Shown: positions 12,625 through 48,849, counted from the stretch's first letter. The stretch is DNA of 64,000 bases from Blasia pusilla (GCA_050084515.1 CM114271.1:4712001-4776000); one strand, 5' to 3'. Notes: generated from the sequence alone by a model not told the origin. A program made the numbers and translations.

Positions 12625-15597
12625 TTTTTTTTCAAAATAAATATATCCACTTTATTATAAAATAAACCTCAAAAGAGGACACAGAAAGATAATAACAACT
12701 CAAAAGAGGAGTCAAAAAATGCATAAAAGAATGCAAAAAGAAAATGGTAACAAGCCAACACAAACACTGGCTCAACGAGCTACACGATTGATAGCCTGAA
12801 AAAAATATTACAAGAACACGAGTGGTTGGTCAGACTTGAATGGACGACGAGGCGAGCGACCCTCCACCACCTCCGCACGAGGTATCAATGCCAAGGCTTG
12901 TGCACGTTGGAAGGCCACTGAGATACATTGCCGAAAATAAGTAGTAACTACCGAGAGAGAAGGACTACGGGAAGGGGCAAGGTGATGATTCTCGAGGGAG
13001 TGGTGAGCACATGTTTTCAAGAAAGTATCAAAAGACACATGTAAATGACCGAATACTTCCACTGCAAAAGGAATAAATCCATCAGTCGCATGTCTCACAA
13101 CATAACTTAACTCCTTGATTCTTGCTGCAGCTCCGGCCGCCAAACCTTTGGTATGTGCGGCTCGATACACCAAGTCAGAACTTGTTGGATCAGCAATCAC
13201 CATATCACCTAGTGTCTGGAATCCACCTCGAGACATATCAAGATCTACTCTCCGACGAGAGGTTGCTTGTGTGGTTGAAGGTAGGACATGGAGTTGCTCT
13301 TGCCCAACGGTGTATCCTACAGTACGAGCCACCGATGCTACCGCCTTTCTAACGACATCATGTGTGGCCGTTCGTTCTCCATCATGTGCACATCGGAGAA
13401 TATGGATACCCTTGGCATCAATGGGATCCCCGCATACACAATTCGGCACACCTAAGAGTGAAGAATAGGGAAGTCCAAGACGTAACCGCAAAGCTGTCGA
13501 GAATATACTTTGAGGAAGATAAAATGGAAGAATAAGAGGATTTGCAGTAAGCCACGCCCCCGCTCTAGTACCCGCACATGAACGTAGACGAGCTCAATTA
13601 GCGTTAGAGGATGCCTCGGAGAGAATGCTGGAAAAGTTGATTTGATGCAGATTCTCGGAGATATGCTCTTGAAGTTGATCAAACCCTTCCGTAATCAGTT
13701 GACTGAAAGGGGATAGAATTTCTTGTGTAGCAAGAGGAAGAAGAGCTCGTGTAGATCTCAGTTTTTGTTGAAATAACAAGTCCCCCTCCTCTACATGGGC
13801 AATATGATCCATCAAGATAGATGTATCTCCTTGGAGAAACCTTGAAACCTTGAAGCCATAATCGGTGCTACCAACACCCAACTCCCCAAAAAGGCTGCGA
13901 GAGCATAAGCGACTGTGGAGGACAGTCCCACCCCTCCAAAAGAAATAGGCAAGATAGCTTGTCGTGAAGCAAAGACCCCATCCTCTCCCTCAAAGGTATT
14001 CGGGCCAAGAAGTTGACCAAAAGTTGTCAAGATAGAAGCGTCAAAAGAGGCCAACCGATGTAAGAACCTTGAAGTCGGAGGACAAGTGCGAAGAAGGTAG
14101 GAAGGACGTCGTAGAAAAAATTGGGAGAGAATCCCATAAGCCACTTGGGGATCCCCTAGATGAGGTAACAAATAAAGCCATTCCACGTCTTTCAAAAGGG
14201 CCTCATCCAAGAACTTTGAGACATAGTCGATGAAGCCAATTGGGACCCCAAGAACTCTAACCCCTTCAATGTAGATGGGAAAATCAAGATTAGGTGGGGT
14301 GAATGTTGAGGGAAGGCATGAAGGAGACCATACTCCATATTTACTAGGTTGGACTTTAAGGTTTAAGAAAGAGAGTCGCTCCACGAAATGGGTATAAGCA
14401 AGAACCACTTCAGAAGGAGGACCTATAATGTGAGTGTCATCAGCAATAGAAGGGAAAAGACAAGATGGAAATGCTTGCGCTGATGCTCGAAGGGCACGAA
14501 AATGGGCAATGGCAATCAAGAGTGAAGAAAATCCCATGCACCACAGCCTCACAACCTCTAGGAGTTGCCACTCCAAATTGATGAGGAAATAAGTGGGCAC
14601 TAAAGTGAGGACGAAATTGCAAGCATAGGGATCGACTAACCAAGCGGTATAAAACCTCTCCAATAGCCAAAGAGCGCACATCTGAAGGAGGCTTATCCAA
14701 AGCCAACAAATGACAAACCTCCAAGAGCCTAGAGATAGAGAATGGGAGATGACCGGCCGTCATATGTGCACACACCATATAGAGAGAGACAAAGCCACTT
14801 GTTGAATCTGCTGGGATAAAGCAATCGTAGAGATGCTCAAAAACCATCCCTGATAGCCCACTTGCTGATAAGCGAGGAGTATGCAGAAAAGCCCTTGTGA
14901 AACCTCCAAATCAAGCTCCAAGTCAAGGTCCGTTGTATAGTCTTCTACAAAAGGTGGAGCATCGCCACTTGAAGGAGGATGAAGAGATTCTAAGAGAGCC
15001 ACTGTTTCCGCACTTGGAACCGCCGGAGAAAGAGGACCCAATGCTCGAGCTGCATGTGAAAACTCACCAACCTGCCCCAAAAGTAGACTTCGTTGAAGGC
15101 GTTGTTGTATTGAAGGCCTACCATGATTGGCATGTTGAGTAGGATGAGCCGCAACTAAGGCCTTTGCTCGAAGTACATGCTCATTTTGAAGATTCTCCCA
15201 ATCCCCAGACATAAAGCGTTGAATACCTGTGGAGGTTTCACGATGACCTGTTGCACCATCCCTTGGAGGGAGGACTAAAATCCATTATGGGAAGAGTAAT
15301 TGGAGATACCAAGCATTGATATCTGTGGGGTCACGTGCTAACCTTTCTAATGGGAAAAGCAAAGCTTGTTGGGTGATGGGGCGAAAAGCAATAGGAATGC
15401 GAGTGTAGAATCTAGGACGAGGAAGACTTGGATGGAAAGAGCGAAGGAGATCAATTTGGCTTAACTAGGTCCAAAAAGTTATTGTGGGGAGTGCAGTAGG
15501 AGGTGGTATCAGGTTAGGGATTGAAGGCCCATGCATGGATCGACAATACCACTGATGTCTTTTGATCCCATTAGGAGCAAACTCCTTACCACAAGGT
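12625..15597 (-). mobile_element. CRE-like non-LTR retrotransposon, 3' part (RT plus restriction-like endonuclease), decayed
   Basis: RT motifs DVRSLAIGEVLYRL, HQFGVATPRGCEAVVH, IADDTHIIG, LGVPIG, LPISFGGVGL. Zn knuckle and REL endonuclease CVCG..HILRC..RTATHD..RVD..D..K...FIPFAVEVFG (12808-13491). The central RT motifs are deleted near 14520. Short A-tail near 12625. Confidence 0.85.
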
Positions 15598-16112
15598 TGT
15601 CACGACTGTTAGGATAAATCGGTGGGATCTAGCAAAGCGTCTTCACGAGTAGTGGAGGACAGGCCCAGGAGGTCAAGGATGACCTGTTGAGGCCCCAGGA
15701 AACCTGAGAGAGCAGGTTTCCCCTTCGTTTCAGCTCATTTGGAGCCATATAGAGAAACTTACTATTTCAGGTAAATTTCTATATTGAGGATAATTAAATT
15801 TCCACTTTGGGAAGTGGCCCTCGACCCGCTACAGTAGGTCAAGAGCCAAGGAGGTGACTTGCGAGCATAGATTACCGTTGAGAGGGCTTGGGAGAGGGAA
15901 GGGGGTATACCTCCAAGAGAGGGAGCTTGAGAGCTCATTCTCTCTTTGTTAAACCTCTTGGCATAAGGCGGCGGAACTATGGTCCCTTGTCTTGTGAGTG
16001 TAACCCAAGCCTCTCATTAGGAGAGTGGGTTTGGTTTCACATGAGAGAGAGTGCACACATTTGAGAGCTATGGTGTGAGATGATGTAGAGAGATATTGGA
16101 TCTTACTTTACA
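15598..16112 (+). repeat. Terminal repeat segment A1 (about 515 bp)
   Basis: Direct repeat of 25310-25826; begins tgtcacgactgttagg and ends cttactttaca. Confidence 0.92.
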
Positions 16113-17822
16113 AAGACAGAAAGAGAGAATGAGAGAATGAGAGAGTGAGAGATCTTCATGGGGGAGCTCGCTAATCACTTGTTGTTTTTTCAGGTTGGGG
16201 ACCGTGTTCCCCATTCAGCGGCTCATGGGAGTGCTCACCGGAGCAAGGGCTCCTTTGATTGTTCTTTGCATTTGCCGATTTTTCGTGTGGAAGAGTGACG
16301 CGCGGAAGCGCTGCCCAATTTCTGATAGAGATTGATTATGGGGGTGGGTTGCCCCATGCCAATGCTCTTGGGAGCACCATGTAGCTTGCTGATTTGTATT
16401 TTTCCAGGTTTTACATTTTCGTTGAGAGAAATCAGCGCGGAAGCGCTGCCAAATTTTGTGTAGGAGAAAGAGACATTGGGCTTTACGACAGTCCCCATCA
16501 ATTTTTACTGGAATGTTTGGTTCTAAATATTTTTGACATTGTCGTAGATCGTGAAGTTGTGCACGCTGTGCAACAAACAATGCGCAATTTGGATTTGCGA
16601 GCAAAAAGTTATGGTCAATCTTGAAAATTTTCCATTGCTAGGCGATTTTTAGGGTTAAATTGTTCAAATCCGTAAACCAGCCGGCGTCGCCGTCATAGTC
16701 ACAATCAATGGTCCGCCGTTGATGGTCAATCGTCACCATCACCATCAATCATCAACCGTCACCGTCAACAGTCCACGGTCCATTGTCCACCCTTTGGTTG
16801 CCATTGCCGTCGTTACGGAGTGGAGGGTCTTCCATGACGTTCGTTGATTCTCTGACTTGCGTCGCCACTACGTACTTTATTTTGGCCGCCGCCGTCATCG
16901 TTGTTTCATCATCAACCAGTGATGGCAGATGACCTCCGCTTATGGTGTTTGAGTTTTGATTTCATACTGCTATGTTGTGATTGGTAGCCGCTCGACGACG
17001 ATCGAGTACCGTGCCGTGACGCCCGTATCCGCAACGCGCCGCCGATTGCCGCGCCGTGCCGCTCGTGGCCGCACTGCACCGTCTCGATCGCGGAGCCGCA
17101 CCGTCATTTTGGAGAAGAGTGTGGGTTTATTTTTGATTGAGGAGGGTATGCCGCGGAGTGCCACATCCCACCATCGAGGTCCGTGCCGTTCGTAGTCGTT
17201 CCGTGCCGCCTGCAACGCCGCACCGTTCTGTTGGAACCGCACTGTCTATCGAGGATTTTTGAGCAGCGTCAGTACATGAGGAGTATGACTTGCTGATTGG
17301 AGGAGTTATCTCCATGACCGAGTTAGGTTCGAGATTTGCAGTTGCTGAGGAGCGACATCGACATGTGTTCAGGTTACCCATTCTGGTCCTTTACCCTGCA
17401 CGTGTGAGGGATTTTGGGATTTGGGTAGTTTATTTGGGGATATTGGGTGTGTGGATGCTGAGAGCATCATTTATATATGTGGTTTAGGGGACATAGACCT
17501 GTGTGGGATGTCCGGAGTTGAGGGTAGGTTGTCGATGAGATGGTAGCCAGGTCGATTTGCCGCACCACGCCGCGTGTTGCCGCACGTTACACGTCTTGGG
17601 GAGGGAGAGTGTAGATCGAGTGCCACATGTTTGGGATGAGTGATTGAGGGATTATTCACGAGGTTGAGAGTGATCGTATGAGAGGGCACAAGGGTCATCA
17701 CGGAGTACGTTCAGGACTTTGAGAGGCGAGGTGGTGAACCCGAGAGTAGCTCTAGAGGTTTTACGCGGAGTGGCGCGAGGTTCCGAGGGTCTCCACGTGA
17801 GGGACCACCTCGACCTCCTTCT

Positions 17823-18960
17823 GTGTCATCGTCAGACAAGGGGGAGGGTGTAGAGGAGTTTGTGAGCACATCGCCACACATTATGAGTGGTCCTACCAGT
17901 TGGGTGTACGAGATGGACGACCGGGGTAGAGGACCACATAGGTTTTCAGGTGCAGTAGGCACGATTGAGTTGCACGATTTCATAGCCGATTTTAGGAGTT
18001 GGTGCGACTCCCAGCGGGCCAGGAACTCTAGAGAGTTCAACCCGTTTACAACATGGAACGGTATGTTCCAGCATTTAGAGGGGGCGCCCATGGACGATTA
18101 CCATGAGTTCTCTCAGAGATATGCACGTGAGATCGAGGCGTGGAGGCTCTACTATGACCCACATTATGTGTCATGGACGGAGCTGTTCCCAGATGAGGAG
18201 GAGGAGTCAGGAGAGGCTACTTCCTCTTCCACTAGTGACATTTTAGGAGGGGTCACTCGCACGGGAGCAGTTGCACCGTCTCGTCGGGTTCGTCCCAAGT
18301 TCAACCCTGTGGTTGAGTTCTTTGATGAGTTGAGGGCGAGCTACCAGGGGATACGGACGGAGAAGTTGCGGAGCATCCATGACTTCTAGAGGCGCCCAGG
18401 TGAGAGTTTTCATGAGGCTTACACTCGCTTGTGCCGGTTGATCAACGTTACTCAGGGGTGACAGAGGCTTAGGCTATCCAGTCATGGTACGCGATGCTGG
18501 ACCGGACCCTGCGGACACGGGTCTGGGAGGGGGTGCTTCTTATGAACACCTCCCCTACGTTGAGAGATGCTTTTAGGACCGCCAAGAACATTGAGCGCAA
18601 CATGGCGGAGGAGAGCGTAGCCACCATGGGTACTAGGCGAGAGCAGTCGCGATTGTCTGCACCACCTGTGCAGCAACGTGGACTCCGAGATAGGTCGATT
18701 GTGGCACCACCAGCTGAAGGAGAATACCGGGAGGTCGTGCCACAGAGACCTACGCCTTTACATGTGGCTCAGTAGCAGCCGCCTACTATTACTTGTTGGT
18801 CATGTGGTGGAGCCCATCATCAACGCGATTGCACTCGTCAGGGTCATGGACGTGTGCCTTAGCATGGAGGAGGAGATGGTGCTGCACCAGGAGGTTATCA
18901 GTGTCACTATTGTCAGAGGTATGGTCATACACGCGCCAGGTGTTTCAATTTACATCCTAA
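17823..18960 (+). pseudogene. gag with two CCHC zinc knuckles
   Basis: ORFs 17823-18389 and 18494-18775, then CWSCGGAHHQRDC (about 18795) and CHYCQRYGHTRARC (about 18902). Interrupted by stops and frameshifts. Confidence 0.85.
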
Positions 18961-19878
18961 GTTACGTCCGGACCGAGGGCCAGAGAGGGCACCAGAGCGA
19001 GTAGCCGGTCTGGGTGGGTCTAGAGATCGTGCACCATGTAGTCTCGTTGGGGGATGAGGAGCTAGAGTTTCCCGATAGGGTGGTGGAGCTGCCCATGGAG
19101 GAGGTAGTGTACCACCATCTAGATGCGCCGAGGGAGACTCCGGACGTGAGGCTGGGATGGCTGCTCAATACAAAAGCTACATGAGCAGATTTCCGCTATG
19201 GCATTGAGGTTACCCGATGCCGGATCCGTGACATCGACATCATATGGAGCAGCCAGAGATCTGGAGGATCCTGGTTGGATGTGCGGGGTTGCCCAGATGG
19301 AGGCAGCCAAAGTTGTGATGCGTGGAGCAGCTGCAAAGTTGGATCCACAGCGAGGGGAAGCCATGAAATAGACGAGGCTTCCTCAATCTTTCACGTTGTC
19401 CGAGGTGATGAGGATCCCATCGATGGGTCCTGAACAGAGTTCATGGAGAGTTGGTGATGTTGTTGGTATGCAGGCACGGAGGGCGATGAGAGAAGCGAGT
19501 ACAACAACTCCTATTGTTGATGCTCATGAGGGGCATGTGTTGAGCACGTTGTTGGGGGTGGCCACTGTTGTGTACCGCACTCTTTTATTTTCTACTTCCA
19601 ATGTTATGATGTTGGGGGATACGCCCGCCGAGGCTTTTCGGCTGGCCGCCTCACTATGTGATCACTGTGGCGGAGTTGGAGTTCCTGCATCACGTTCAGA
19701 GGTGATTGCAGAGGAGGTGACGGACCTGCCCTTGGAGCGGATGCTCGGGCCGTCCACGTGAGATTCATGGCAGGCTGTGGCTGCTAGGATGGCGGAGATG
19801 CCCGCTAGATCCGCGATAGAGCGTGCCATGGCTTCTCCTGGTGTTGTGTTGCTGGATAACTGAGGAGAGGTCTTTCAG

Positions 19879-20290
19879 TTGGTGAGTCTCAGAGGTAGAG
19901 CTTTTAGTCCGCAGCGTGCCCTGTTGGATTCTGGAGCGCAACCCCTGATGTTGGGGAAAGCGTCATTCAGAGGATTGGGCTTGACGAGAGCTGATGTGGA
20001 GTGTCGTCCATTCCAAATACAGACATCCTTGGATGGAGTGAGTACCACACAATATATCACCCGATAGGAGGTCATGGTGAGGATTCGCCCGGGACATCCT
20101 ACAGATGAGTCCGTGGTGCGAGCCAAGGCGATAGTGACTGATGCAGAGTCCTACGACGTCTTGGTTGGTGGAGCAGTGTTATACTCGATGGGGTTTTCCC
20201 TAGATTACTAGGAGGAGTCAGCGTCCTACAGACCAAGATGGCAGTAAGGTGATGGGCGCCTTAGCTCATTACCCGTTCGATTCACAGGTG
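19879..20290 (+). pseudogene. retropepsin aspartic protease domain
   Basis: RALLDSGAQPLMLG active-site motif and downstream YDVLVGGAVL. Confidence 0.85.
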
Positions 20291-20641
20291 CAGTGATCGA
20301 GCAACGGCCAAGAGAGAGATGGCGACCTTAGTAGCATTTAGCAGTTCCATCACTTACCCTAGTGATTTGATTGAGGGATATGTCCATGCAGAGGATACTC
20401 CCGTTCCCAACATTTCTATGGAGAGGAGTGTTATGGTAGCCGCATCATTCTGTGGAGGAGAGGTGCCGCTGTGGGGTCGACTGAGGAGCTTCGACGATTG
20501 GCAGATGAGCACGTGCAAACCGCGTGGAGCGAGGCGTTTGCACTGGAGCGTGATAGGTCAGAGGAACCCGAGGTAGCAGGGAGTGCTACGATGACACCCT
20601 TGGATACCACACCCATTGTGTGGTGTACCCTGGAGGAGGGT

Positions 20642-21580
20642 ATTCGAGTGTTAGATCTCTTTGGAGGGATTAGCACCGGGTTAGTTGTTGTTTTGCAGGC
20701 ACGAGTGCGAGTACTGCAGTACCTGTATGTGGAGAGTGATGATGTTGCGAGGCGCGTCTCACTACGACATGTGGCGCAGTTATGCCTACGTTTTCATGAC
20801 TTATTGTCTGCGTCCGCAGTACAGGGGTACCAGAGTTCCCTACCGAGGGATATTTTGTTGCTGGGGCGCAGGACTTAGAGAGGGTAGGGACCATTGATTT
20901 GGTCATTTCCGGTTGGCCATGTCAGGGCCAATCGAGTGCTGGACAAGGCAACGGGTTGGCTGACACTCGGTCCAGGTTGTTTTGGGAGATGTTGAGGGTC
21001 TTACGGCAGTTGCAGGAGCACCAGTCTTGTTCTCCAACCTACATTCTGGAGAACGTGCCGATCTTAGGAGACTCCAGGTCATGGGTGGTCACAAGTGCTC
21101 ATCAGGTGCGTGCTTCGATCGGCCCAGCAGTGTTCTTGGATGCGGCGAGTGTAGGTTCTAGAGCCCATCGCCCGCGTCTATGGTGGATCAACTTGGTGCC
21201 CCATGCGGTCTTACGGAGGGCATATGCGAGAGTGGAGCGCCCCTCCCATTTGTTAGTGGATTCCATTCTGGATCCAAGTCGTCGCTTACAAGCAGTGAGG
21301 CACGATGATCGACCATCGTTGACTGTGGTCAACAGGATGGGCAGGCCGCAGGCAGCCTTTCCCACGTTTGTGAGTTTTCCCGCTTCCTATACATACAAGG
21401 AGGCCGGTCCTGGCTTGGTTTGGGATGACTAGGTTCAGCGGTTGGTGGAGACCAATGTCAACAAGAGAGAGAGAGCGATGGGATTTCCCACAGGAGTGAT
21501 GGCAATACCGTTAGTGTCATAGGCATCACAACGCCACGTCTTGGGTCAGGCGATAGACCTGAACTGCTTGACATGGATCC
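20642..21580 (+). pseudogene. DNMT3-like C5 cytosine DNA methyltransferase domain within pol (copy 1)
   Basis: Motif I VLDLFGGISTG, II YVESD, IV IDLVISGWPCQG, VI ILENV, VIII RAHRPRLWWINL, IX/X RERAMGFP...VLGQAIDLN. One frameshift near 20865 and stops in the C-terminal part. Confidence 0.92.
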
Positions 21581-22160
21581 TAGCTTGGGAGTGGCTGAGC
21601 AGCGTTGTATGAGATTGCAACAGATCACAACGGTTGCGTTGGTGAGCCCTATGCCTACTGAGACGGTGGAGGCAGTGGCTGGGGGCGAGACCCGAGGAGA
21701 TCTACACACCATGGGAGATCGGGAGAGACACCCTTGGACTTCTTGGGATGTTTTGCAGGTACGCCAGGAGATGATAGCCACAACATCCAACGTGGTTTAG
21801 AGCACTGCATGTGGAGGAGATCAGAGTTTGCAGTTGGCTGCAGGAGAGCAGTCGAGTATTGTTGTTCGAGACGGGTTTGCACCATAGCAACCAACGATAC
21901 CCGCGCTGGAGAGTCCTACCGTACTCACAATGGAGACTTGGGTGCCAGATATGGGCCCTAAGTTGACAGGAGGAGAGCGGCGACGAATACATCAGTTCCT
22001 CAGGAGTTATAGGAGCTGGTTTGCATTTAACATGGAGGATTTGGGTACGCTGAAGGGATCGGGGATCCACATTGAGTTATCGAGTGATACGCCGATCTTC
22101 CGACGACCCTACAGGTATAGTGATATGGAGAGGGCTCTGATTTAGAGTAGGAGCCAAGAC

Positions 22161-23009
22161 TTGGTTGGAGCAGGACTAGTGGAGATGTTGCATGGAGAGT
22201 ATGCATTTGCCACTATCATGCCCACCAAGAAGGATGTGCATGGCAACAAGACGGATAGGCGGATGTGTGGGGATTACCGACCTATCAATCGGGAGACGAA
22301 GTCCGATAGGTATGCCATGCCCACCCCTGAGGAGATCTTTGATACGAATGGTCACGCAAAGGTCTTCAGTTCATTGGATTTGCGAGCCGGATACCATCAA
22401 CAGCCTATCAGATTGGAGGACAGGCAGAAGACGGCATTTTGGGGCATCGATCCTCACGGGAAGGATTGTTTGTACGAGTGGCGGTTCTTACCATTTGGGT
22501 TAAAGAACGCCATGGTTGAGTTTCAGAGCATCATAGATAGGATCTCGGCTGGTCTGGATTTTGCTAGGTATTATATTGATGACATCGTAGTCTTTAGCGC
22601 CACCGTTGAGGAGCATGAGCGACATGTAGAGGAGGTGTTTCGACGATTGCAAATACATGGACTGAAGCTACATCCAGGCGAGTGCAAGTTCTTCTACGAT
22701 CGGATTGAGTACTTGGGTCATACGATATACCCAAGGGGCCTTGGTGTTCAGCAGACGAAGGTAGAGGCTATCTCACGTATTCCACGCCCTACAGATGTGA
22801 GCCGTGTTCGCGCATTCGTAGGATTGGCAAACTTCTATCGGCGGTACGTCAAGGGATTCTATTCGATTGCGAAGCCGTTGACCTTGCTGACCAAGGTGGA
22901 TCATGAGTGGCAATGGGGGGATGAGCAAGAGCGAGCATTTCAATTGCTCAAGGACAGGTTGACGTCTGCACCCATCTTGAGGAGATCGATCAGGGGGCGT
23001 CCTTTCTAG
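22161..23009 (+). pseudogene. Gypsy reverse transcriptase (copy 1)
   Basis: RMCGDYRPIN, LDLRAGYHQ, LPFGLKNA, YIDDIVVFS, YLGH. Confidence 0.97.
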
Positions 23010-23381
23010 TTGCACACAAATTGGAGCATGTTGGGGCTTGGAGCGGTGCTCACCCAACATGATGATGAGGGTAGAGAGTTTGTAGTGGCTTACGCTAGCC
23101 GCTCGAACAACGCTGCAGAGGCGAAGTACAGATCGCATGAGGGTGAGTGCTTGGCTGCAGTGTGGGCTGTCGCGCATTTTAGGTGTTACTTATTCGGCAA
23201 CCCCTTTACCATCATCACTGATCATCAACCACTGAAGTGGTTGATGGAGTCCGAAAAGCTTACAGGGAAGCTTGCGAGATGGGCTCTGTTGTTGCAAGAG
23301 TATGATTTTCAGGTGGTACATAGACCTAGGACGCTCAACGAGGATGCAGATGGGTTGAGTCGTAACCCATGCCCGAGTTAG
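23010..23381 (+). pseudogene. RNase H (copy 1)
   Basis: GLGAVLTQ, VAYASRS, ECLAAVWAV, TDHQPLKWL, DADGLSR. Confidence 0.95.
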
Positions 23382-23689
23382 CGAGATGCGACTGGAGCTC
23401 GATGGCGTGGAGAGAGTGAAGAGAGTCAGTGCCAGGATGGCACGCGTCAGCCTATTTAGGCATGTTGGCTAAGGAGAGCCAAAGTGTGCAGACTTCGATG
23501 GTGAGGTCTAGTGGCGAGTCCTTGGATCCCGAGGCTAGTGAGGAGACGACAAGTGGCCGAGATATTCATGATGATGGAGTAGTCTTGGAGTACCTTCGTA
23601 CTGGCAGCATTGCGAGCACCGTGGGTGCTAGAGAGCGGAATCGGATCCTATAGCGGGCCAGACGGTTCCGTTGGGAGGGGACACATATT

Positions 23690-24800
23690 TTGAGGGTTTG
23701 GGAGGATGGCAGAGTACGCGTAGTGCCACATCCTTCGCAGAGAGCACGACTAGTGCAGCATGCCCACGAGGAGTTGGGTCACTTTGGGGTGAAGCGGACG
23801 TACAACTTGCTCCAGATTCAGTATTGGTGGCGAGGCATGCAGACTGACGTTCAGCAGTTTGTTGCCAGGTGCATGGTGTGTGATTGGGTCTGAGCATCGT
23901 TCAATGCTCCGACTCCACAGTTGCATCCATTACCGATCATGGGCTTAGGGTATAGAGGGAGTTTGGATTTTGCAGGACCTTTGCCTTTGACGGAGCGTCA
24001 CAGTCGTTATGTATTGGTGATGGTCCAGCACTTCTCGAAGTGGATTGAGTTGGTTGCATTGCCTGACAAAGTGAGTGAGGGAATAGCTTATGCCTTCCTT
24101 GACAGAGTGTTGAGTCATTATGGCGCACCGGATGAGGTGTTGACAGACCAGGGTACCGAGTTTCGCGGTGAGTTTCAGGCCTTGTGTGATCAAGCACTGA
24201 TCGACCATCGTACTACTTCGCGAGATCATCCTAAGGCAGATGGACTAGCGGAGCGGGTTGTGCAGACGGTGAAGAGAGGAATACGCAAGTATGGCTTGCA
24301 GAGAGGTCACCTAGGAGATTGGGACCTTCAATTTCCGTGGTTGGCGATGGGATACAGATTCAGCATGCAGGCATCCTTAGCGTCTTTTTCACCATACTTG
24401 CTATTTTATGGCCGAGAGCCAGATTTACCTGTGGCCATTCGTCGAGATGTTGGTGAGGTGTTGGACCTTGATGACCCAGATGTATGGATGCGAGCATGTT
24501 CTCATAGGGTTGATTTGTTTTGGAGAGTGATGCCCATGGCGTTCGAGAACTTGGCGATTGCGCAGCATCAGGATACATTGAGGTATATGACTATTCGGGG
24601 TGGTGGTTATTGACCAACTATCCGGAGGTTTCATCATGGAGATTATGTCTACTTGCAGCAGACGGCACCAAAAATGTTGGATGTCACTGAAGGGCGCACT
24701 ATCTTGAGAGTGTGTGACGTTTTGCCATCCGGTGTTCTCTTGCTGGAGGGACGCGATGGTATGGTCTGGAAGGACCATGTGCGTAATTTTGCGCCATGTC
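23690..24800 (+). pseudogene. DDE integrase (copy 1)
   Basis: HHCC motif HEELGH...CMVC; core LDFAGP, TDQGTEF, GLAERVVQT. Confidence 0.95.
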
Positions 24801-24856
24801 ACCTTCCTAACATTGGTGGTACAGTAGATCCGAGCTTAGTAGTAGTTCCTTCACGC

Positions 24857-25003
24857 TTGCGTTGTATGTTGTATGGTTCCGCCCGTGGTGCGGCCACGAT
24901 GCTAGTCTGTGATGGATTTTTGAGAGCTTGGCATATGGCATGTCTGACGCCACCTCTCACTAGGGTTCCTCGGGGACGATGGATGTGTCCCATATGTACA
25001 TAG
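24857..25003 (+). pseudogene. C-terminal PHD finger fused to integrase (copy 1)
   Basis: CMLYG...MLVCDGF...WHMACLTPPL..VPRGRWMCPIC fits C4HC3 spacing with two Cys lost. Copy 2 keeps the second Cys (CMLC). Confidence 0.88.
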
Positions 25004-25176
25004 AGGAGATACTAGGTAGGTTTTGATTCTGACTTTTTTTGTGATATGGATGACATGAAGGCGACTAACGATGGGGCCGCATGAGCACCCGACCTTTCTG
25101 CTCTTAGCGTCCTAGAGATGTATGTCGTGGTAGATAGGGATAGAGGGCTATCTGGAGTTAGAGGTACCTAACCACC

Positions 25177-25190
25177 AGCTAGGGGGGCGA
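25177..25190 (+). promoter_or_regulatory. polypurine-tract-like plus-strand priming site
   Basis: agctaggggggcga lies immediately before repeat B1 and is conserved before B at about 50351 and 51202. Confidence 0.7.
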
Positions 25191-25191
25191 T

Positions 25192-25307
25192 TGGAAATAT
25201 TTTGGTACTTCTCGCCTCTGTGTATGGATGCCATGAGTAAGCATGGGATCGTGTGTGCGTTCGATGACAGCGATGTATGTTGTGTAGCAATATGTATGTG
25301 TACGACA
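25192..25307 (+). repeat. Repeat segment B1
   Basis: tggaaatattttggtacttctcgcc...tacgaca; direct repeat of 25827-25956; followed by a 2-bp spacer ac and then A2. Confidence 0.92.
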
Positions 25308-25309
25308 AC

Positions 25310-25826
25310 TGTCATGACTGTTAGGATAGATCGGTGGGATCTAGCAGAGCGTCTTCACGAGTAGTGGAGGACATACCCAAGAGATCGAAGATGACCTGCT
25401 GAGGCCCCGAGAAATCTGAGAGAGCAGAGGTTTCCCCTTCATTTCGGCTCATTTGGAGCCATATAGAGAAACTTACTATTTCACGTAAGTTTCCGTATTA
25501 GGGATAGTTGACTTTCCACATTGGGAAGTGGCCCTTGACTCGCTACAGCAAGTCAAGAGCCAAGGAGATGACCTGCTAACATAGGTTACCGTTGAGAGGG
25601 CTTGGGAGAGGGAAGGGGGTATACCTCCAAGAGAGGGAGCTTGAGAGCTCATTCTCCCTTTGTTGAACCTCTTGGCATAAGGCGGCGGAGCTATGGTCCC
25701 TTGCCTTGTGAGTATAACCCAAGCCTCTCATTAGGAGAGTGGGTTTGGTTTGACATGATAGAGAGTGCACACCTTTGAGAGCTATGGTGTGAGATGGTGT
25801 AGACAGAGATTGCATCTTATTTTAAA
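25310..25826 (+). repeat. Repeat segment A2
   Basis: Direct repeat of 15598-16112. Confidence 0.92.
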
Positions 25827-25956
25827 TGGAGATATTTTGGTACTTCTCGCCTTTGTGTATGGATGCCATGAGTTAGCATGGGATTGCGTGTGTTTGTTTG
25901 TGTGTGTGTTCGATGACAGCGATGTATGTTGTGTAGCGATATGTATGCGCACGACA
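25827..25956 (+). repeat. Repeat segment B2 (right terminus of copy 1)
   Basis: Second copy of B ending gcacgaca, followed by TSD aggt. Confidence 0.92.
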
Positions 25957-26500
25957 AGGTATGCAACGAACCTTTGGTACAAATGGAGAAGTAGAAGGGT
26001 TACAAGGAGAGGTGAGATTGCAAGACGTGGTGATGGCCAACGATGAGGGGGTAAGTAGGTTGGGGCAAGAGGAGGAGGAAGAGGGGAGATTTTCGGGTAG
26101 AATAGATGGGATTTGGAAGCAAGGGCATAGATGAGATATGTGGGGATAGCAAAGTAGAAGGATTCGAAAATAATGGATCAAGATTATGCTCAATAGGACA
26201 AGGCGAAGAAGGGAGAAGAGGAGAATCCGGAAGAAATGTAGCGAGTGTAATGGACGTATTAGCATCTCGAGGAAAATGGCGAGATCTACGATGAGGAGAT
26301 GAACCATTGGGAGAGGTTACGGCTGTAGGAGGGCGTGTAAAACCAGATAAGCGAGTAGACGGAGAATCCAACTCCATCTCAATGACCGCTATGAGGGAAT
26401 GAGTTCGTAATGTTGGGCCCATTCCGTATCTAAAGATCCAGAAAGGCATGAGGAATCCCTTAAACCAATGGTAACCCGGTATCACTCTATAAGGAGAGCG
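25957..26500 (-). mobile_element. 5' part of the CRE-like non-LTR element split by copy 1
   Basis: Pro/Ser-rich ORF remnants. Joined across the TSD to 15597 it reads VRCIPCGKEFAPNGIKRHQWYC (zinc finger). The 5' limit is approximate. Confidence 0.8.
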
Positions 26501-31400: not shown

Positions 31401-31866
31401 TCAGGAGGGCTTCTGATTAGACAGCACCGCAGAAGCAGTTCCCTCATGCGAGAAGTGGGACCCAAATCCAACTAGCGAATGGCACGAGAAGATTGGGATT
31501 CAAAACCACGAAGTAAAGAAGGTGATGACAACAATTGAATGCTCCTCAAAGCCACTTGCAAGGGGAGCGCAGGGCCGTAGGTGCGCCGTGAATCTGTCAT
31601 ACACTTAAAGCGCGACATTGTGGCGCGTCTGTTTGGGAATTGCTTGGGCCATCATGAGTGCGAGGCTTTTCAAAGCCTCACACTCATAATGGCCTTGCGC
31701 TCCCCTTGCAAGTGGCTCTGAGGAGCATTCAATTGTTGTCATCACTTTCTTTACTTCGTGATTTTGAATCCCAATCTTCTCGTGCCATTCGCTAGCTGGA
31801 TTTGGGTCCCACTTCTCGCATTAGGGAACTGCTTCTGCGGTGCTGTCTAATCAGAAGCCCTCCTGA
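31401..31866. repeat. Long inverted repeat (176-bp arms, 114-bp spacer); candidate hairpin RNA or fold-back element
   Basis: 31401-31576 is the reverse complement of 31691-31866 with about 6 mismatches counted by eye. A second short hairpin lies at about 31647-31694. Confidence 0.95.
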
Positions 31867-35900: not shown

Positions 35901-38900
35901 AAGGATGTGGCATATGGCCCACTGCGACTCATTACTCAAAAGCTATTTATGGAAAGCACACTTCTTTGCCCAGACTAACTTTACATCAGAGAAACGAAGG
36001 GATCCAAGGAGGACTTATTATTGGGCTGAAAGACTCACCTTACCGATGAGTTTGAAAGGGGTAAGGCATCTTGCAATGCCAGCTGAAATAATGCAAAGTC
36101 CATGGTCAGAAGTTGCTCCATCAACTCTTGTTGTTGAGCTTCAGAGCCAGTAGATAATCCATCAAGAATGTGTGTTTGTCCGATTGCTGTCAATTTTTTC
36201 TTCAAACCTGCAAACCTCTCCTTCAGTTTCCGCTTTTCTTTGACTTCCTGCTTCATCACAAAAGTGTACAATGGCACTTGTGAGTGTTACTGGACAGGTC
36301 CAGAACCTGAGAATGTCATACAAGCACTATCGATGGCAGAGATGAGATGAGATGAGATGAGACGAGGCCATTCTGAGAGCTTGCAGTGGCAAATAGACAA
36401 GCATTCACTGGTGTAGAAAACAAAGCCAGATGAACCATTGTGCAAAACTTTTTGAGGACAATCATATCCATGGAGACAGTCAGTGTCCACCTGCTTGCGT
36501 TTGGCCTTCACATCTTTGCCATCACCTGGGGCGTTCAGCTCAAGAAGTCCTGCTGGTGGGGTAATCTCCACCCGCCTCATATGCTTGTCAACAATAGGAA
36601 CAATGTCTTTAACAAATGGTATCCAGACCTTGCGATCGCTGCTGCCACCAGCTGAGGCTGTCAGGCTCACTTGCAGGAGGTCAGTATCACCACCGGTATT
36701 GAACACATCTAGCACCACACCAATTTCCTGCCCTGTTTCCTGCATACAGAAATCTTGCATCAGAAGACTCCTTCCCTTAATGCAGTGGACCAAGTGCATC
36801 ATCTATGGGCAAGAGACGAGTTGCTTTCAGATGAAAAAACATCAAAATTCGCATATTTCAAGAGAAAGTAGCACAACCCAATTCTCTGTGAACTTCCATT
36901 TATATTGCACATTCAAACATTTTTACTTGAAAACGGCCCAGTACCTGAAGGGCCACTGACATGCCAACAAGATCTGGAATGTAGAATTCGTCCTCATCTA
37001 AAGAAGGTCTATCTGTCACAAGCATGGTTGATCCCACTAGCTCACTGGCCTGCACAAACTCAAGTGCATGGTATTAAGGTCTTGCTGCCATATTGAGGTT
37101 GCACTTGTGGCAAAGACACATGGATCATAGCTTGCAGTCATGCAGAGAGTCAATCATATCATCCTTAAGCTGGAAAATAGATCAAATCTACTATAAGTCA
37201 ACAGTAAAGGGGTATAAAAACGCCTACAATTTAAGGACAGAAAAAATTCCCTCAAGTAAACTTTACTCCCACATGTTGACATCCAGCTTAAATAAGACCC
37301 AAAAAATAAAAGTATACATGGACACTGGACAGTGGACACTGGACAACCTTCTCTAGAGTGTCGAATCCATTTAAAGTGATGAGCCATGAAGGACGTCTGC
37401 CGGATCGTTCCCTGCCCTCCACAAGCTCGACACGCTGGAGAACAGGTTTACCCATGGAGCGACTACGTATCCATCTTGTTCCTGGCTGGTCAATCACAGC
37501 AACCTTTGATCAATTCAAGCACTCCTTGTAAAATATCATGCTTACTTAAGTTCAGAACAAGAGCTTAGCTAGCCAACGACCTCTTCTCCCATTTTACATT
37601 CAACATGTGACTAAACATGACAAGTAGATATACTTGCTATCCAACAGGCACTCCAGCATTAGACTGGACTAGCTTTTAAGACTCATGAGATTAATTCAGT
37701 CTTGTAAGAGATCTAGCTCAGTCTTCCAATTTTCCTTCTCGAATGCACAATTTAGTTATTTCTGAACATAAGTAGTACGATGAGCCACAATCAACTCAGG
37801 AGAAGCACCCGCTCACACCTTCTCGAATCGTTCTTCAGGGAAATCTGTCAGGGAATGCACGTGGAGCTCCCCATTTACTCCATGAGTATCAGCAATGTAC
37901 CCCACTTCCACGAAGTCTCCAGCATCTGGAATCTCGTCTTCCAACAGAGGACTCAGATTACCTTCAGAAACAGACAAGCACAAGACATTATCACCCAAAT
38001 TTTGGTGGAGCTTGAGAACACTCATGACAACACTGTAGTTCTCACACAGGTGTGTGACGTGACGGCCAGAGACCACCACCTGGAACTGGACCTGAGGACC
38101 TCCTAGGTGGTCTTCGTATGGGCTCTCCCTGCTCAGGAAACTCCACAGGTGTTCCAGATTCAGCAGGAGACACAGAATCTCATGCCCATTCCAATACACC
38201 AACCATCATCTGATGCTTTGCACTGTCAAACTAAAAAAAGTTCAAGGGACCTCTCTCCTCTGAGCCTCTCAGTGTGCACCCAACCCTGCCTCTAGCACCA
38301 TCCAACAGAGCGCGGGGTATCTGGTAGCCAACCTACAACAGGCACTACTTCATGAGTAGTATATATCTCCATCTGATTCACAACACAATGAGTACCATCC
38401 TATGCAGAAATTGCTAGGCTGGTGACACCAGAGCCATACATAACGTTCAGTAGCCTAAATTCACTGCCTACAGCTGCTGCACTGGTAAGTAACACATGTA
38501 ACACATGATTTCAATATGGTCAGCACTCACATTATATGAGGGTGTCACTCATCCTCTCTCTCCTACTGTTCAAGCATTCGTGGATACCATAACCAAAGCA
38601 GTGGGCAAACGCTCACAGCAGAACAGCATGGAGGAAGCCATGAAAATGTCTGACCTCTCTCTCTTGACGGTATATCCCGAGAAGGCAGAACTGAATAAAT
38701 ATTTGCGGGGAACCCCTTGCTTGGGAACCTGGCTCAAGTTCAAGTTCAGAACGGGGGCAATCCCCTTGAACCATAAGAAAAGCAGGATGGGAACACAACT
38801 AAACTCTTGCGCCTTGTGTGACGATGGGGATGAAACCTCTAGTCATTACTTGGTCTCCTGCGCAAAATTCACATCTCACAGAGCAAGAGCATATGCTGAT

Positions 38901-40772
38901 ATTGCTAAGCTGGTAGCACCAGAACTGTTCAACACATTCAGTAGGCTTGATTCATTGCCCAAAGCTGCTGCACTGGTAAGTAATGTCTATTTGGGATCCC
39001 AACCAGGTAAAGTAGATGGTGTGGTGAAGATTTTCTTGGTTGACACTTGGAAGCTCCGCACAAACACGTTGTTTGGTCAGCACTCACACTGCATGAGAGT
39101 GTCTCCCTCCTCTCATATGGTACCTTCTTCACTTGCTCCTCTCTCTACACCTATCCCAGTCTCAAGCAACGTCCAACCAGGGCGCGGGGTCAATGGTCGC
39201 AAGGCTACGACAGGCACTACTTAATGAGTACAGTCTCCTACTGTCCAAGAGGGCAGGTTCCATGGTCGCAAGGCTACAGGCACTACTTAATGAGTAATAG
39301 CCTCAGGGACTCCAGTGGACAACATAATTGACGTCTCTCTCTAAACCCTACATAAACCCTCTCTAAACCCTACATCCTGTTGGTGTCAATAACTTTTGTC
39401 TCTCTAAACCCTGTTGCAGAGAATGAATGAATTGATATACTGTCCACAGGAGCCCAGAAAAAGGGTCATGGGACTTTGATTTGCAGTTCATGCAGGATTT
39501 ACTAATCTGAACCTGGTTCTTGCAGGTCATGAAGTCAGCGAGTGTGAGGGTAGGACCTCTGAAGAAATCTGGGAACACAAGTCTGATGTACTCGTGGTAA
39601 TTGTAATTGAATAAAAAAATGTCACTCCATCATAAAAAAAAATTGAGATTCCGTGCTTACATAATCTTTCCTCTCTTTTGGTTTGTGACAACTTTCCTTT
39701 CTCTAATTCTAAGTCTGTAGAACCACATCGGAATCTAGCAAGTGGATTACGGAGTTTAGTGGGCATTTTGGTAGAGATGTGAGATGCCTGTGCCCCACAT
39801 CGCTCGGTATTTGCACTAATGCTGCATCCTTTCTCCATTTTTTCCAGACTGGACGCACCTGCTCTCCATAGCTTTTGCTGCTTATCTCAGGTAATAAATA
39901 TACAGTCGTTCCATAATATCTCCAAAAGGTCTTTGTGAGTGCTTGTTAGCAGATCATCAATAGATACGCCCCACTTGTTAAGCCATACACTGCACTACTG
40001 ATATCGATTCCTTGCCCCGGTAGCCGATAGCCGGTAGGGGCAGCACTATCCTTGCAAGCTTGGAAGGCTCTTACAGAGAGGCGATTAGGGTCGTCCTCGG
40101 TAATAGCTTCGAGGAGCTGAAGAAATGCGGTCAGGCTTTTGACTGCATAAATCTCCATTGGGACTTCTCCAAACGCTGCAAATGGTAGGTCATGGGGGAT
40201 TGTCATCCTGACACTCGGCCAACAATGCATAAAGAGATTCTGTGGGATCTCCAGTCACTTGAGCCATTAATTGGCATTCGAACCCCAAACATCAGGAGCA
40301 TACAGAGCGGCTGGAATGACGATGGCTTTCAAGAGTGTTGGACTTCTTGTGGTGTGTTCCACACTTCCATTCTCTTGCAGTTGGATTCCAGCAGATGAAG
40401 ACATCTCACCCGTGCAATAACTTTGCTGCGACCGTTATTCGTTCTCCAATTGATGGTGGGGTTTGAACAGAGAGAGAGGGGGAGAATTAGGAAGACAGCG
40501 CATAAAAAGAACCCCATACAATGTGGATACTCACCAGACTGAGCCATCTCTGTAATGCCCCCGCGTGCTGCTCTCGTCGCCCGGCTGTCATCACCATTTC
40601 CTCCTGCTCCTCCTCCTCCTCCTGCGGCTCTTCGACGTTGCTTGCTCATGCTCAATCCAGTCTTCGCGCTCCATCCCTCTGCAGACCTGTTCCGTCCCGT
40701 CAGAAAATTCACGCAAGCAAACGTCGGCACCATCGCCATCATCCTTGCCCTCACCACAAGCGCTGAAGCCAT
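32944..40772 (-). CDS. rimM: Plastid-type RimM (16S rRNA processing) fused to a UDP-N-acetylglucosamine pyrophosphorylase domain; 11 exons, about 846 aa
   Basis: Phase-consistent GT-AG exon chain: 40535-40772, 37819-37961, 37348-37485, 36945-37049, 36491-36739, 36039-36247, 35491-35827, 35200-35319, 34732-34920, 33386-33934, 32944-33207. RimM motifs VGYIADTHGVNGEL, TDFPEERF, EFYIPDLVG, WIPFVKDIVP, TPPAGLLEL. UAP motifs LAGGQSTRLG, APNGNGG, VDN, KLERFIFDAF, EFAPVKN. Exon 1 resembles a transit peptide. Extra small exons in intron 1 cannot be excluded. Confidence 0.9.
38330..39300 (+). mobile_element. 5'-truncated RTE/RTEX-like LINE fragment in intron 1
   Basis: ORF 38505-39224 with LKFKFRTG..L...CALC...ETSSHYLVSC C-terminal zinc motif. 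Repeated caggcactact(t)(a/c)atgagta units at about 38340, 39211 and 39277. Second copy at 63.0-63.9 kb. Confidence 0.75.
39340..40330 (-). mobile_element. 5'-truncated RTE/RTEX-like LINE fragment in intron 1
   Basis: ORF remnants PFAAFGEVPMEIY and LARFRCGSTDLELEKG...REERLCK. The 3' end is homologous to 62050-62260. Confidence 0.7.
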
Positions 40773-42795: not shown

Positions 42796-44281
42796 TGTCA
42801 CGCCCTTTAGGATAGATCGGTGAGATTATCTAGGCCATTATAGGCCCAATAAACTTAATAGTTTTGCATTTGGAAAAAAACTTAAATGAAAATATGATCG
42901 ACTTTCTAAATATTGAGCTAATTACAAGGAGGTGACTTGGGAGAATAGGTTACCATGAAGAGAGCTTGGGAGAAATATATCCCAAGGAGAGAGAGCTTAA
43001 TGATTGTTGAATCTTAGCATGGCGGAGGAGCTATGGTCCCTTGCCTTGTGAGTGTAACCCAAGCCTCTCATTAGGAGTGGGTTTGGTTTCATGAGAGAGA
43101 GTGCACACCTTTGAGAGCTATGGTGTGAGATTATTAGAGAGAGATTAGATCTTATTTTACAAAGAGAGAATGAGAGAGTGAGAAAGCTTCATCGATGGAC
43201 ACTGCTCCTCTTCGCTCAAAATGGGATCTCAAGGGTTGCTTGGATTGTTCTTTCCTTTTCGATAGGATTGAGTAACTGCCCCATTCTTTGGGAGCACCAT
43301 GTCTTATTTATACAGGTTTTACATTTTTTGGGAGGAATTACAATTTTATGTTGGAGAAAAGACATTGGGCTTTGGCTAGAATGTCCGATTCTAAATATTT
43401 TTAATGATGGCGATTTGAATCAATTTTCGATGAGAAAAAGGTTATGATCAATCTTGCAAAATTTCCATTTTATTTTTAGGTTAAATTGTGCAAACCCTAA
43501 ACCAGCCGCCACATGGCTCGCCGCGCGCGTCATAGTCTTATCACCTCCTGGTCAACTTTTAATATCACCATCAATTCCTAAAATGGTCCACCTTGTTGTC
43601 CACCCTTGGTTGCCATTCACGGAGTGGAGGGTCTTCCACAAGGTTCGTTGATTCCGCCATCATGTACTTTGTTTTGTGCCACTCATCAAAGACGGCATAT
43701 GACCTCCTATTATAGTGTTTGAGTTTTGATTTCCTTCTAATATCAACTAGCGACCGCCTTTGTCTCGCAGCCGATCCGGAATTATGGAGAAAATTGGGGT
43801 TTATTGTTGATTGCACCTTTATTTCTAAGAGTTTTTTCATCCGGGAGAATATGACTTGCTGATTCGAGGATTGCGAGTTGGGGTAGAGATTTTGTTCGAC
43901 ATTGACATGTTATTACCCATTTTGGTCCTTTATTGTGAGGGTTTCTGGGATTTTGGTAGTTTATTTGGGAATACTGGGTATGTGGATGTTACATCATTTA
44001 TATGTGGTTTAGGGGACATAGCTTGTTGTCGAGTTGAGGTTAGGTTATCGATGAAATGATAACATGGTATTTGCGCCATATTCGCTCATTACATGTCTCG
44101 GGTAGGTTTGATCACATGTTTGGGATGAGTGATTGAAAGATTACTCACGAGGCAAGATGAGAAGGGCACGAGGTTCATCGCGTCCGGTCGGGACTTTCGA
44201 GGTGGTGAATCCGAGAGTATCTAGAGGTTTTATGCGGAGTGGCGTGAGGTTCCGAGGGTCTTCACTTCAGGGGCCACCTCA
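42796..44281 (+). mobile_element. Fragment of the DNMT-Gypsy family (A repeat plus leader), riddled with small deletions
   Basis: Starts tgtcacgccctttaggatagatcgg and is collinear with 15598-17815. May be distorted by assembly consensus errors. Confidence 0.8.
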
Positions 44282-47329: not shown

Positions 47330-47461
47330 GATAAGTGTAGTATGTAAGGAACGAGTCAAACTTCTCACCCATAGCCCCATACATCTCTATGGCTGGTGGG
47401 ACAAATCGATATCCATCATGAAGTCAACTATAGAGATGGGTCTTCTTCATTGCCATCGCCG
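47330..47461 (-). mobile_element. 3' remnant of the second CRE-like LINE endonuclease
   Basis: Translates AMAMKKTHLY...RFVPPAIEMYGAMGEKFDSFL, homologous to AARIKELSY...FIPFAVEVFG; continues from 59073 across TSD gccg. Confidence 0.75.
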
Positions 47462-47587
47462 TGTCATGCCTATACACATTACTACACAACATACATCGTT
47501 GTCGAAAAACATACACACAAACACGCACGATCCCATGCTAACTCATGGCATCCAAACTACGAGACAAGAAGTACCAAAATATCTCCA
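47462..47587 (-). repeat. Repeat segment B (terminus of copy 2)
   Basis: Reverse complement of B, preceded on the minus strand by the last about 30 nt of A (47589-47618). Confidence 0.9.
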
Positions 47588-48267
47588 ATAAAAATACGAT
47601 CCAATCTCTCTCAACACCTAAGATTGAGGGTGAACATCCCCCAAAAATGGGATCTACTCACTCTACCTCAAAATAGCTGAATTCACTTGTCCTATCCACC
47701 AAGTAAACTGATTTTTTTTCTACCACTCAAGAAATTATTTCTACCCAATTTTTTTGAAATTTCACTCATACATTGAAATGGTGGCTATGGAAGCCCACAA
47801 AAAGTGTCGTAACTTCATGCTCAAATATTGGATCATGCACCGTTTCTTCTCCAGCATGCACAACTTCTCGATCTATGAGTTCATCAAATTGGTTTCTCCA
47901 TTTGATCTTCCACCAAAAATTGAACTATCGTGTAGCCTAACGTCCCTTTCTCCTACACAAAAATTGGCAACGCTTCCGCCCTGATTTATCCCAAAAAATA
48001 TATAAAACCTATCATAAAACAAACCAACGAGCTACATGGTACTCCTTAGAGCACCAGTATGGAGCAGTCCGCCCCCATTGGGCAGCGCTTCCGAGTGCCA
48101 CTCTCATATATGAAAATCAACAATGCAAAACAACAAACTACATCGCTCCTGCCCCTATGAGCACTCCCATGAGCCATGAAGTGATGAACATGGTCCCCCA
48201 ACCTGAAAAACAAGCAAGCAACCTGAGAGCTCTCCCATGAAGCTCTCCCACTCACTCATTCTCTCTT

Positions 48268-48774: not shown

Positions 48775-48849
48775 ATCTGCGGACTGGCAACGTCGCTAGT
48801 GGGTGCTAGAGAGCGGGATCGGATCACAGCGAGCCAGATGGTTCCGGTG

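Follow-up and report, generated by a model that had tools for sequence, protein, structure and literature searches.

A decayed Gypsy-type element of Blasia pusilla with split, permuted repeats and integrase-type ends, possibly inserted from joined cDNA ends

A 64,000-nucleotide stretch of Blasia pusilla DNA (GCA_050084515.1, CM114271.1:4712001-4776000), referred to below as the window, was analyzed with respect to the retroelement at positions 15598-25956, which we term copy 1. The element carries the remains of a Gypsy-type polyprotein with a DDE-type integrase, and it is arranged as A-internal-B-ac-A-B, A and B being direct repeats. It begins with TG, ends with CA, and is flanked by a 4-bp duplication, AGGT. 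This permuted layout is a property of a lineage and not damage to one copy. With a probability of roughly 60%, we consider the arrangement A-int-B-NN-A-B (NN, the 2-bp spacer; the second A joined directly to the last B) to be best explained by complementary DNA (cDNA) whose two ends had been joined and which was then opened by the integrase at an internal CA-NN-TG site.

The positions of all features are given in Table 1. When the region 15000-26500 was compared with itself, A1 and A2 proved 90.5% identical over 515 nt, and B1 and B2 were 84% identical including one 13-nt indel, with two ungapped blocks of 92-93%. Disregarding the indel, the two pairs are equally diverged, as is expected if both arose at insertion. 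Direct reading gave AGGT/TGTCAC at the left end and GACA/AGGT at the right end of copy 1, and the spacer ac sits between an abutted GACA and TGTCAT. No B followed A1, and no further B was detected in copy 1 by sensitive blastn. The boundaries were verified by an independent approach. Public sequence data of the same organism (run X1) were aligned to 15300-26300, and 10 DNA contigs (3 + 7) represented an unfilled site, in which position 15597 was joined to 25967/25968 with ATGC.. between them and a single AGGT. These contigs are other copies of the repeat into which copy 1 inserted. Because they carry one AGGT, the boundaries and the duplication of copy 1 are confirmed independently of its repeats. 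Repeats, direct reading, and unfilled-site contigs thus agreed on the layout and the 4-bp duplication claimed in an earlier interpretation made from the sequence alone (the sequence-only reading). The flanks themselves (15300-15597 and 25957-26300) belong to a high-copy host repeat; contig depth was high there, and many contigs bridged the unfilled site.

For comparison, 80 metagenome loci with no host assigned were fetched with an alignment of ten related polyproteins, and their layouts were scored by self-comparison and by searches with A and B pieces. Five loci carried the complete A-int-B-NN-A-B arrangement (L016, L019, L021, L036, and L010), and the main family comprised nine distinct 3' ends of the B-NN-A-B kind (L012, L016 (=L073), L019, L021, L022, L023, L036, L037, and L077). 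The spacer was exactly 2 bp long in 13 of 13 B-to-A joints of the window and the loci (ac in 5, at in 5, gc in 3). The split layout recurred across independent assemblies and three divergent families, and the duplications at the start of A and the end of B matched. The flanks of ten complete elements, two in the window and eight in loci, were compared and scored as matching positions of 4. All four positions matched for copy 1, the composite second region of the window (see below), L016 (ATAA), and L007 (TTTT), i.e. for 4 of 10 elements against about 1 in 256 expected by chance, and three positions matched for L019 and L051. As a control, six outgroup Gypsy loci of the same fetch showed ordinary single pairs of long terminal repeats (LTRs). 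A full AB repeat at both ends, which the sequence-only reading had regarded as incompatible with its interpretation, was present in no locus.

These results bear on one alternative, namely that an ordinary LTR element was damaged or misassembled, its 5' LTR having lost B and its 3' end having duplicated B. All copies are indeed old and broken, and in the second region of the window one piece (Y) has a deleted A and another (X) an internal deletion. However, the same layout is found in independent assemblies and in three divergent families with matching duplications, the unfilled-site contigs fit the copy 1 boundaries exactly, and four window copies share the joint of A to the 5' internal part without B. 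In addition, the layout has been reported independently for Klebsormidium nitens in a figure legend (PMC5890265). We therefore regard damage or misassembly as extremely improbable.

Eight further distinct 3' ends of the main family, compared with nine of the B-NN-A-B kind, stopped at the end of B, with the flank following directly. They comprised four complete plain A-int-B elements (L007, L029, L030, and L051) and other B-terminated 3' ends (L009 (=L011), L013, L018 (like L031), and L056). A repeat-less form of this kind, foreseen in the sequence-only reading, thus exists. Self-comparison revealed no repeat pairs in nine long loci (L002, L006, L007, L009, L011, L018, L030, L056, and L064), most of which turned out to be A-int-B or incomplete when they were searched with A and B pieces. 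The frequency of such copies, together with the flanks of L007 (TTTT/TTTT) and L051 (AGAT/AGAC), would suit a history in which the integrating unit is plain A-int-B, cut from linear BA-int-BA or from a one-LTR circle, and in which the chromosomal copy acquired NN-A-B later, through unequal recombination, gene conversion, or a second insertion. A second insertion, however, should be marked by a 4-bp duplication of its own and should vary in position, whereas the spacer is fixed at 2 bp (13/13), and the equal divergence of the A and B pairs in copy 1 also speaks against later addition. Moreover, without a 3' copy of R standard reverse transcription would be impossible, so that A-int-B would not be the propagating form, and recombination between B1 and B2 accounts for A-int-B more simply. 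This history appears improbable to us. The plain copies may be products of cutting at both internal sites, or of later B1/B2 recombination or deletion.

Some of the targets resemble each other: AGGT (copy 1), its reverse complement ACCT (inner inversion of the second region, see below), and AGGC/GGGT and AGAT/AGAC (L036 and L051). This hints at a weak target preference, into which CGGC, ATAA, CATT, and TTTT do not fit.

Landmarks of reverse transcription were located relative to the repeats. Matches to the B-start motif numbered 37: a G-run immediately preceded 22 of them and an A end 11, and the other 4 were loose. As the G-run tract adjoins B, plus-strand synthesis would start at the first base of B. 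The position of the polypurine tract before B1 and not before A2, to which the sequence-only reading had drawn attention, was thus seen in the window as well as at 22 related sites. No tRNA gene was found in the window, and in none of the families is A1 immediately followed by a TGG-type primer site. In the window family a TGGGGGAGCTC motif occurs 47 nt downstream; it was considered as a primer site and dropped, since B2 follows A2 at once. Sequence spanning the end of A can pair with a stretch 70-184 nt further upstream within A, and 9 of 17 A1 ends had an exact complement of 8-14 nt at the A end region. The complementarity comprises 14 nt in copy 1 (Table 1), and in pieces X and Y of the second region the primer-type tract directly abuts the A end. 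Piece X showed 10 exact nucleotides within a 13-bp core and a duplex of -20.2 kcal/mol (z -3.9), and L008 showed 10 exact nucleotides and a 21-bp duplex of -23.2 kcal/mol (z -6.9). L024 had 14 nt (z -4.9), L015 12 nt, and L025 11 nt. Three families place unrelated complementary sequences at the same location, and two compensatory changes separate the primer duplexes of L008 and L010. Pairing was conserved in the main family, with 84.5% of cells paired as against 38.7-65.5% when the alignment was slid. In the relevant passage of Neumann et al. (2019; PMC6317226), self priming is recognized by at least 10 complementary nucleotides starting 0-5 bp after the LTR, and several copies show this arrangement.

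If self priming is right, the complementarity marks the A end as the end of U5, the LTR would be B-NN-A, and the joint between A2 and B2 would be a U5-U3 joint. The A-B joint keeps 0 (L021), 1 (L077), 2 (L022), or 3 (L019, L036, and L024) bases from the primer side, whereas the start of B is always exact, a pattern fitting the reading as a U5-U3 joint.

The integrated form A-int-B-NN-A-B is a permutation of BA-int-BA and carries integrase-type ends and duplications, which points to joining of the cDNA ends and opening of an internal CA-NN-TG. The proposed sequence of events would be as follows. Reverse transcription would yield BA-int-BA with an LTR of the form B-NN-A. Plus-strand DNA would begin immediately after the polypurine tract, at the start of B, and minus-strand DNA would be primed at the end of A, probably by fold-back of the transcript's own 5' end, as in Tf1. 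The ends used by the integrase, TG... at the start of A and ...CA at the end of B, would then abut inside the U3 of the LTR, 2 bp apart. After the two cDNA ends had been joined, in a circle or in head-to-tail fashion, the integrase would cut one internal CA-NN-TG site and insert the resulting ends with a 4-bp staggered cut. In the following round, A2 would provide the 3' R, and B2 would be a by-product that supplies the CA end.

Several observations weigh against this scheme. Neither a circle nor a concatemer, a free end, or other unintegrated DNA was observed. The opposite permutation, A-B-NN-A-int-B, was present at 0 of 12 main-family 5' ends and in no window copy, and A adjoined the flank in 12 of 12. 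A symmetric two-LTR circle with two equal sites predicts both permutations equally; the plain symmetric circle therefore does not fit, and an asymmetric step is missing from the scheme. The circle proposed in the sequence-only reading thus stands only in part: its core idea is supported by the reading of the A-B joint as a U5-U3 joint, but its symmetric use of two internal att sites, and with it the predicted A-B-A-int-B form, is not. An exact complement of at least 8 nt at the A end region was not found in 8 of 17 ends, and covariation of the primer duplex within the main metagenome family was not significant. All copies are old (A1 and A2 74-94% identical), so that the differences at the A-B joint could be later mutations or subfamily traits. 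Neither a transcript start nor a poly(A) site could be derived from the positions at which RNA reads begin and end. Finally, the flanks matched at only 1 or 2 of 4 positions in 4 of the 10 complete elements (two for L021 and L036, one for L029 and L030).

The occurrence of a single permutation would be explained without joined ends or an internal cut by a templated route like that of DIRS elements, combined with a conventional integrase. RNA would run from inside A1 to B2, and the outer parts would be restored by copying B1-NN-A2; the product would be linear A-int-B-NN-A-B with 2 extra nucleotides per end, which the integrase would trim. Models for PAT and Ngaro use the same repeat layout for templated restoration of the ends. 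The constant spacer (13/13) equals the number of bases that many integrases trim per end, and 47 RNA reads running over the B end into A-start-like sequence (a loose end behind 25956) indicate that the internal joint is transcribed. However, this route offers no reason why B starts right after the G-run tract (22 sites) or why A ends at primer-type complementarity. With priming at the A end, the B2 present in the RNA would never be copied. Variation of the A-B joint by 0-4 nt and the B of piece S, longer by 220 bp (see below), are likewise unexplained. We consider the templated route unlikely, although it deserves more weight than the alternatives discussed above.

For the joined-end scheme, a stronger version can be formulated, in which a streptophyte lineage with a DDE integrase replicates obligatorily via end-joined cDNA, the integrase opens CA-NN-TG inside U3, and an additional asymmetric step yields only A-int-B-NN-A-B. 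We put this forward tentatively, as a possibility falling somewhat short of an even chance. If it were true, split repeats of the DIRS type would predate the tyrosine recombinase or be independent of it, and the lineage would link Gypsy and DIRS elements mechanistically.

The second region of the window, 47462-59072, had been described in the sequence-only reading as a second copy of the same layout. Its outer ends (A at 59072, B at 47462), and its spacer ac at 50490-50491 were confirmed, and CGGC was found on both sides, but its layout differs: the region is a composite of three pieces (Y, S, and X; Table 1) with an internal inversion of 48779-51342. A nested insertion was rejected as an explanation, because the interrupted internal halves would then need the same orientation, and their actual orientations differ. 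The inner joints of the inversion read ...GGAGT ACCT followed by the reversed end of B', and the reversed start of A followed by ATCT GCGGACTGG... At the composite's inner target, uninterrupted copy 1 reads GGAGTACCTTCGTACTGG. With B' end and A start taken as reverse complements, the joints (...GGAGT ACCT and ATCT GCGG...) correspond to GGAGTACCTTCGT of copy 1, where this sequence is uninterrupted; ACCT and ATCT represent one 4-bp target duplicated in inverted order. It follows from this match that an A start and a B end had been inserted into the interior of the element with a 4-bp staggered cut and inverted topology. Judged by its joints, the composite looks like a signature of intramolecular integration that seemingly became fixed in the chromosome. 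Its source could be a cDNA that integrated into itself and subsequently underwent recombination with a resident copy; alternatively, the attack may have been launched from the abutted B-NN-A joint.

The B' of piece S is 336 bp long (usual B, about 120), and its start precedes the usual B start at the polypurine tract by 220 bp. The A-B joint is thus not fixed; it is as if plus-strand DNA had begun at an upstream site in one replication cycle. At 59302-59337 (- strand), 230 bp upstream of the A start of piece Y, there are the terminal 36 nt of a B (94% identical to B2), followed by unrelated sequence; this remnant is the stray 3' end of another copy. Rearranged repeats also occur among the loci. 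L006 ends with B-NN-A followed by unrelated sequence and has an inverted B in its internal part (L006:8844-9005), and in L024 an inverted A copy adjoins A1 (L024:5216-5501). The inverted B and the inverted A may be further inversion-type rearrangements like the window composite.

The coding content of the window was examined as stop-to-stop frames, since every frame of copy 1 is broken (Table 1). The pieces follow the order gag, protease, methyltransferase, reverse transcriptase, RNase H, DDE integrase, and PHD finger, in which protease, reverse transcriptase, RNase H, and integrase stand in the pol order of Gypsy elements. Three intact relatives (P0037, P0044, and P0021) likewise carry protease, DNA_methylase, RVT_1, RT_RNaseH, Integrase_H2C2, rve, and PHD, and the integrase piece of copy 1 is 61% identical to P0021. 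A tyrosine recombinase (PF00589) was found neither in 20 window frames of both strands nor in the three intact relative polyproteins, and none appeared in the Pfam annotations of the 120 homologues listed. The assignment of a DDE-type enzyme in the sequence-only reading therefore holds, the catalytic residues being retained. Ten further window frames from both strands gave zero family matches. PF00145 sits between protease and reverse transcriptase in the window and in the intact relatives, and in Marchantia and metagenome relatives PF00145 accompanies a reverse transcriptase. Among the matches listed, the nearest proteins were from liverworts (Calypogeia, 73-77%; Marchantia, 71%, with methyltransferase plus reverse transcriptase), followed by Klebsormidium and Closterium; proteins of K. 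nitens were among the relatives with 45-46% identity over the reverse transcriptase. By domains, repeat layout, and pairwise identity, the window appears to hold decayed Ty3/Gypsy-type copies that fit the streptophyte Gypsy-DNMT3 lineage.

Table 1. Features of copy 1 and of related pieces in the window (positions counted from the first nucleotide of the window)
Feature	Position	Strand	Basis
Target duplication AGGT, left copy	15594-15597	+	Unfilled-site contigs carry one AGGT
A1, 5' repeat, begins TGTCAC; read as 3' part of U3 plus R and U5	15598-16112	+	
14-nt site in A1 complementary to 16120-16133; candidate self primer and transcript start	15934-15947	+	
Primer-binding-site-like tract shortly after A1; 7 extra nt between in copy 1	16120-16133	+	
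gag-like broken frames; zinc knuckle CX2CX4HX4C in frame 18863-19054	17682-19054	+	Translation read by eye, Pfam match absent
Aspartic protease remnant, LLDSGA motif	19864-20064	+	Motif read by eye, Pfam match absent
C5 cytosine DNA methyltransferase fragment	20800-21432	+	PF00145, E 1.3e-11
Reverse transcriptase and RNase H, one in-frame stop	22146-23381	+	PF00078, PF17917
Integrase core; D, D, E kept with D-35-E spacing	23894-24613	+	PF00665
PHD finger at integrase C terminus	24614-25003	+	PF00628
Polypurine tract (G-run) AGGGGGGCG, just upstream of and adjoining B1	25181-25189	+	
B1, read as 5' part of U3, ends GACA	25192-25307	+	
2-bp spacer ac between abutted CA and TG; internal att-like joint	25308-25309	+	
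A2	25310-25826	+	
B2, joined directly to A2 end (U5-U3-type joint), ends GACA	25827-25956	+	
Target duplication AGGT, right copy	25957-25960	+	
5' fragment of further copy: part of A, then directly 5' internal part, without B	42925-44280	+	
Piece X: A, 5' internal part, deletion, A end, B; CGGC outside at 47458-47461	47462-48774	-	
Piece S, inverted relative to Y and X: internal part from copy-1 equivalent 23599	48779-51342	+	
Piece S, B'	50155-50489	+	
Piece S, spacer ac	50490-50491	+	
Piece S, A	50492-51006	+	
Piece S, B'	51007-51342	+	
Piece Y: internally deleted A and internal part up to copy-1 equivalent 23598; CGGC at 59073-59076	51343-59072	-	

The family is very abundant in the host: 245,474 and 35,500 contig pieces of runs X1 and X2, respectively, aligned to 15300-26300. 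From RNA runs X22 and X23, 6,310 and 6,486 reads aligned over the whole element, almost all of them 85-95% alike and 10 to 100 times more frequent on one strand. If the libraries are of the usual stranded type, these reads come from sense transcription of family members that are better preserved than copy 1, and not from copy 1 itself. Repeated loose ends of RNA reads with high agreement at 22083, 22343, 23423, 23819, and 23859 indicate that the expressed copies differ from copy 1 there. The RNA joints 25255>25895 and 25376>15670 were considered as splices or circles and taken to be mapping effects, i.e. reads of other copies split between B1 and B2 and between A2 and A1. Elsewhere in the window, an inverted repeat (31401-31576 and 31691-31866; 176-nt arms, 97% complementary, 114 nt apart) is possibly a small foldback element. 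Another repeat family is represented at 38376-38983 and 63630-63906, about 25 kb apart, by copies that are 84-89% alike and have an internal 491-nt tandem step.

In textbook LTR retrotransposons and retroviruses, linear DNA ending at the LTR ends is inserted, and joined-end circles are regarded as dead ends. The mechanism, if the joined-end route holds, would be new for integrase-bearing retroelements. Here the ends used by the integrase lie inside the inferred LTR and the U5-U3 joint is kept; either the integrase works on joined DNA or a novel route of reverse transcription exists. The question bears on the origin of DIRS-type elements and on the use of internal joints by integrases in general. 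It also affects the finding of elements, as LTR finders would take A as the LTR and miss B2, or class the element as DIRS, and it affects their dating and classification. The host abundance, the sense transcription of relatives, and the active-looking K. nitens elements described in 2018 make the question testable at the bench.

The layout itself is in print, and the supposition in the sequence-only reading that no such Gypsy lineage had been described was too strong. For KnitGypsy-Dnmt3 of K. nitens, the legend of Fig. 4c in de Mendoza et al. (2018; PMC5890265) notes a DIRS-like repeat structure with Gypsy domains. As in the window, a Dnmt3-like methyltransferase is part of a Gypsy-type polyprotein in that element, according to the text of the same paper; in contrast, the nearest proteins of the window element are from another host group, the liverworts (73-77%). 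The text of PMC5890265 on KnitGypsy-Dnmt3, figures and supplements being outside this comparison, contains no target duplications, ends, tract or primer analysis, or mechanism. A 2026 preprint names "streptophytes (Gypsy-DNMT3)", without end structure in the passage concerned. In the literature searched, the name KnitGypsy occurred in one paper only, and no mechanistic account of the split-repeat Gypsy layout was found. The window element is a new, liverwort-like member of a lineage with a published but unexplained layout.

Elements of the DIRS order encode a tyrosine recombinase; protease and DDE integrase are not known from them, nor are target duplications. The window element shares with PAT-like elements and Ngaro the split direct repeats A1-int-B1-A2-B2, but it differs from this order by its DDE integrase, its TG...CA ends, and its 4-bp duplications, no tyrosine recombinase having been found. 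The legend for SymbioDIRS-Dnmt3 calls the order "A-coding region-B-A-B" typical of DIRS (PMC5890265). With ordinary Ty3/Gypsy elements (Metaviridae), the window element has in common the DDE integrase, the TG...CA ends, and the 4-bp duplication; two identical terminal LTRs with the tract at the 3' LTR are lacking and hold only for the inferred B-NN-A LTR. It resembles the self-priming Ty3/Gypsy elements (Tf1/sushi and plant Tcn1) in that a tRNA-type site is absent and the end of the 5' repeat can pair with an internal site of that repeat. Those elements, however, have two ordinary LTRs and a chromodomain, whereas permuted repeats and a PHD finger on the integrase are found here.

In bacterial insertion sequences of the IS3/IS30/IS911 type, joints of abutted ends 2-3 bp apart are reactive substrates of DDE enzymes. 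When such a joint attacks its own molecule, the outcome is an inversion accompanied by inverted duplications, resembling the window composite; these bacterial DNA transposons are unrelated in sequence, and the likeness is one of mechanism only. Among retroviruses, cutting of two-LTR circle joints by integrase is on record for foamy virus and, in vitro, for HIV-1 (PMC1180852, PMC1905944, and PMC4372172, in the passages concerned). There, a DDE integrase acts on abutted LTR ends in continuous DNA, which is the step needed here. As described in those passages, however, the activity is a side path or a test-tube reaction on the U5-U3 joint, whereas in the window element the proposed cut would lie inside U3, the U5-U3 joint would be kept, and the path would be obligatory.

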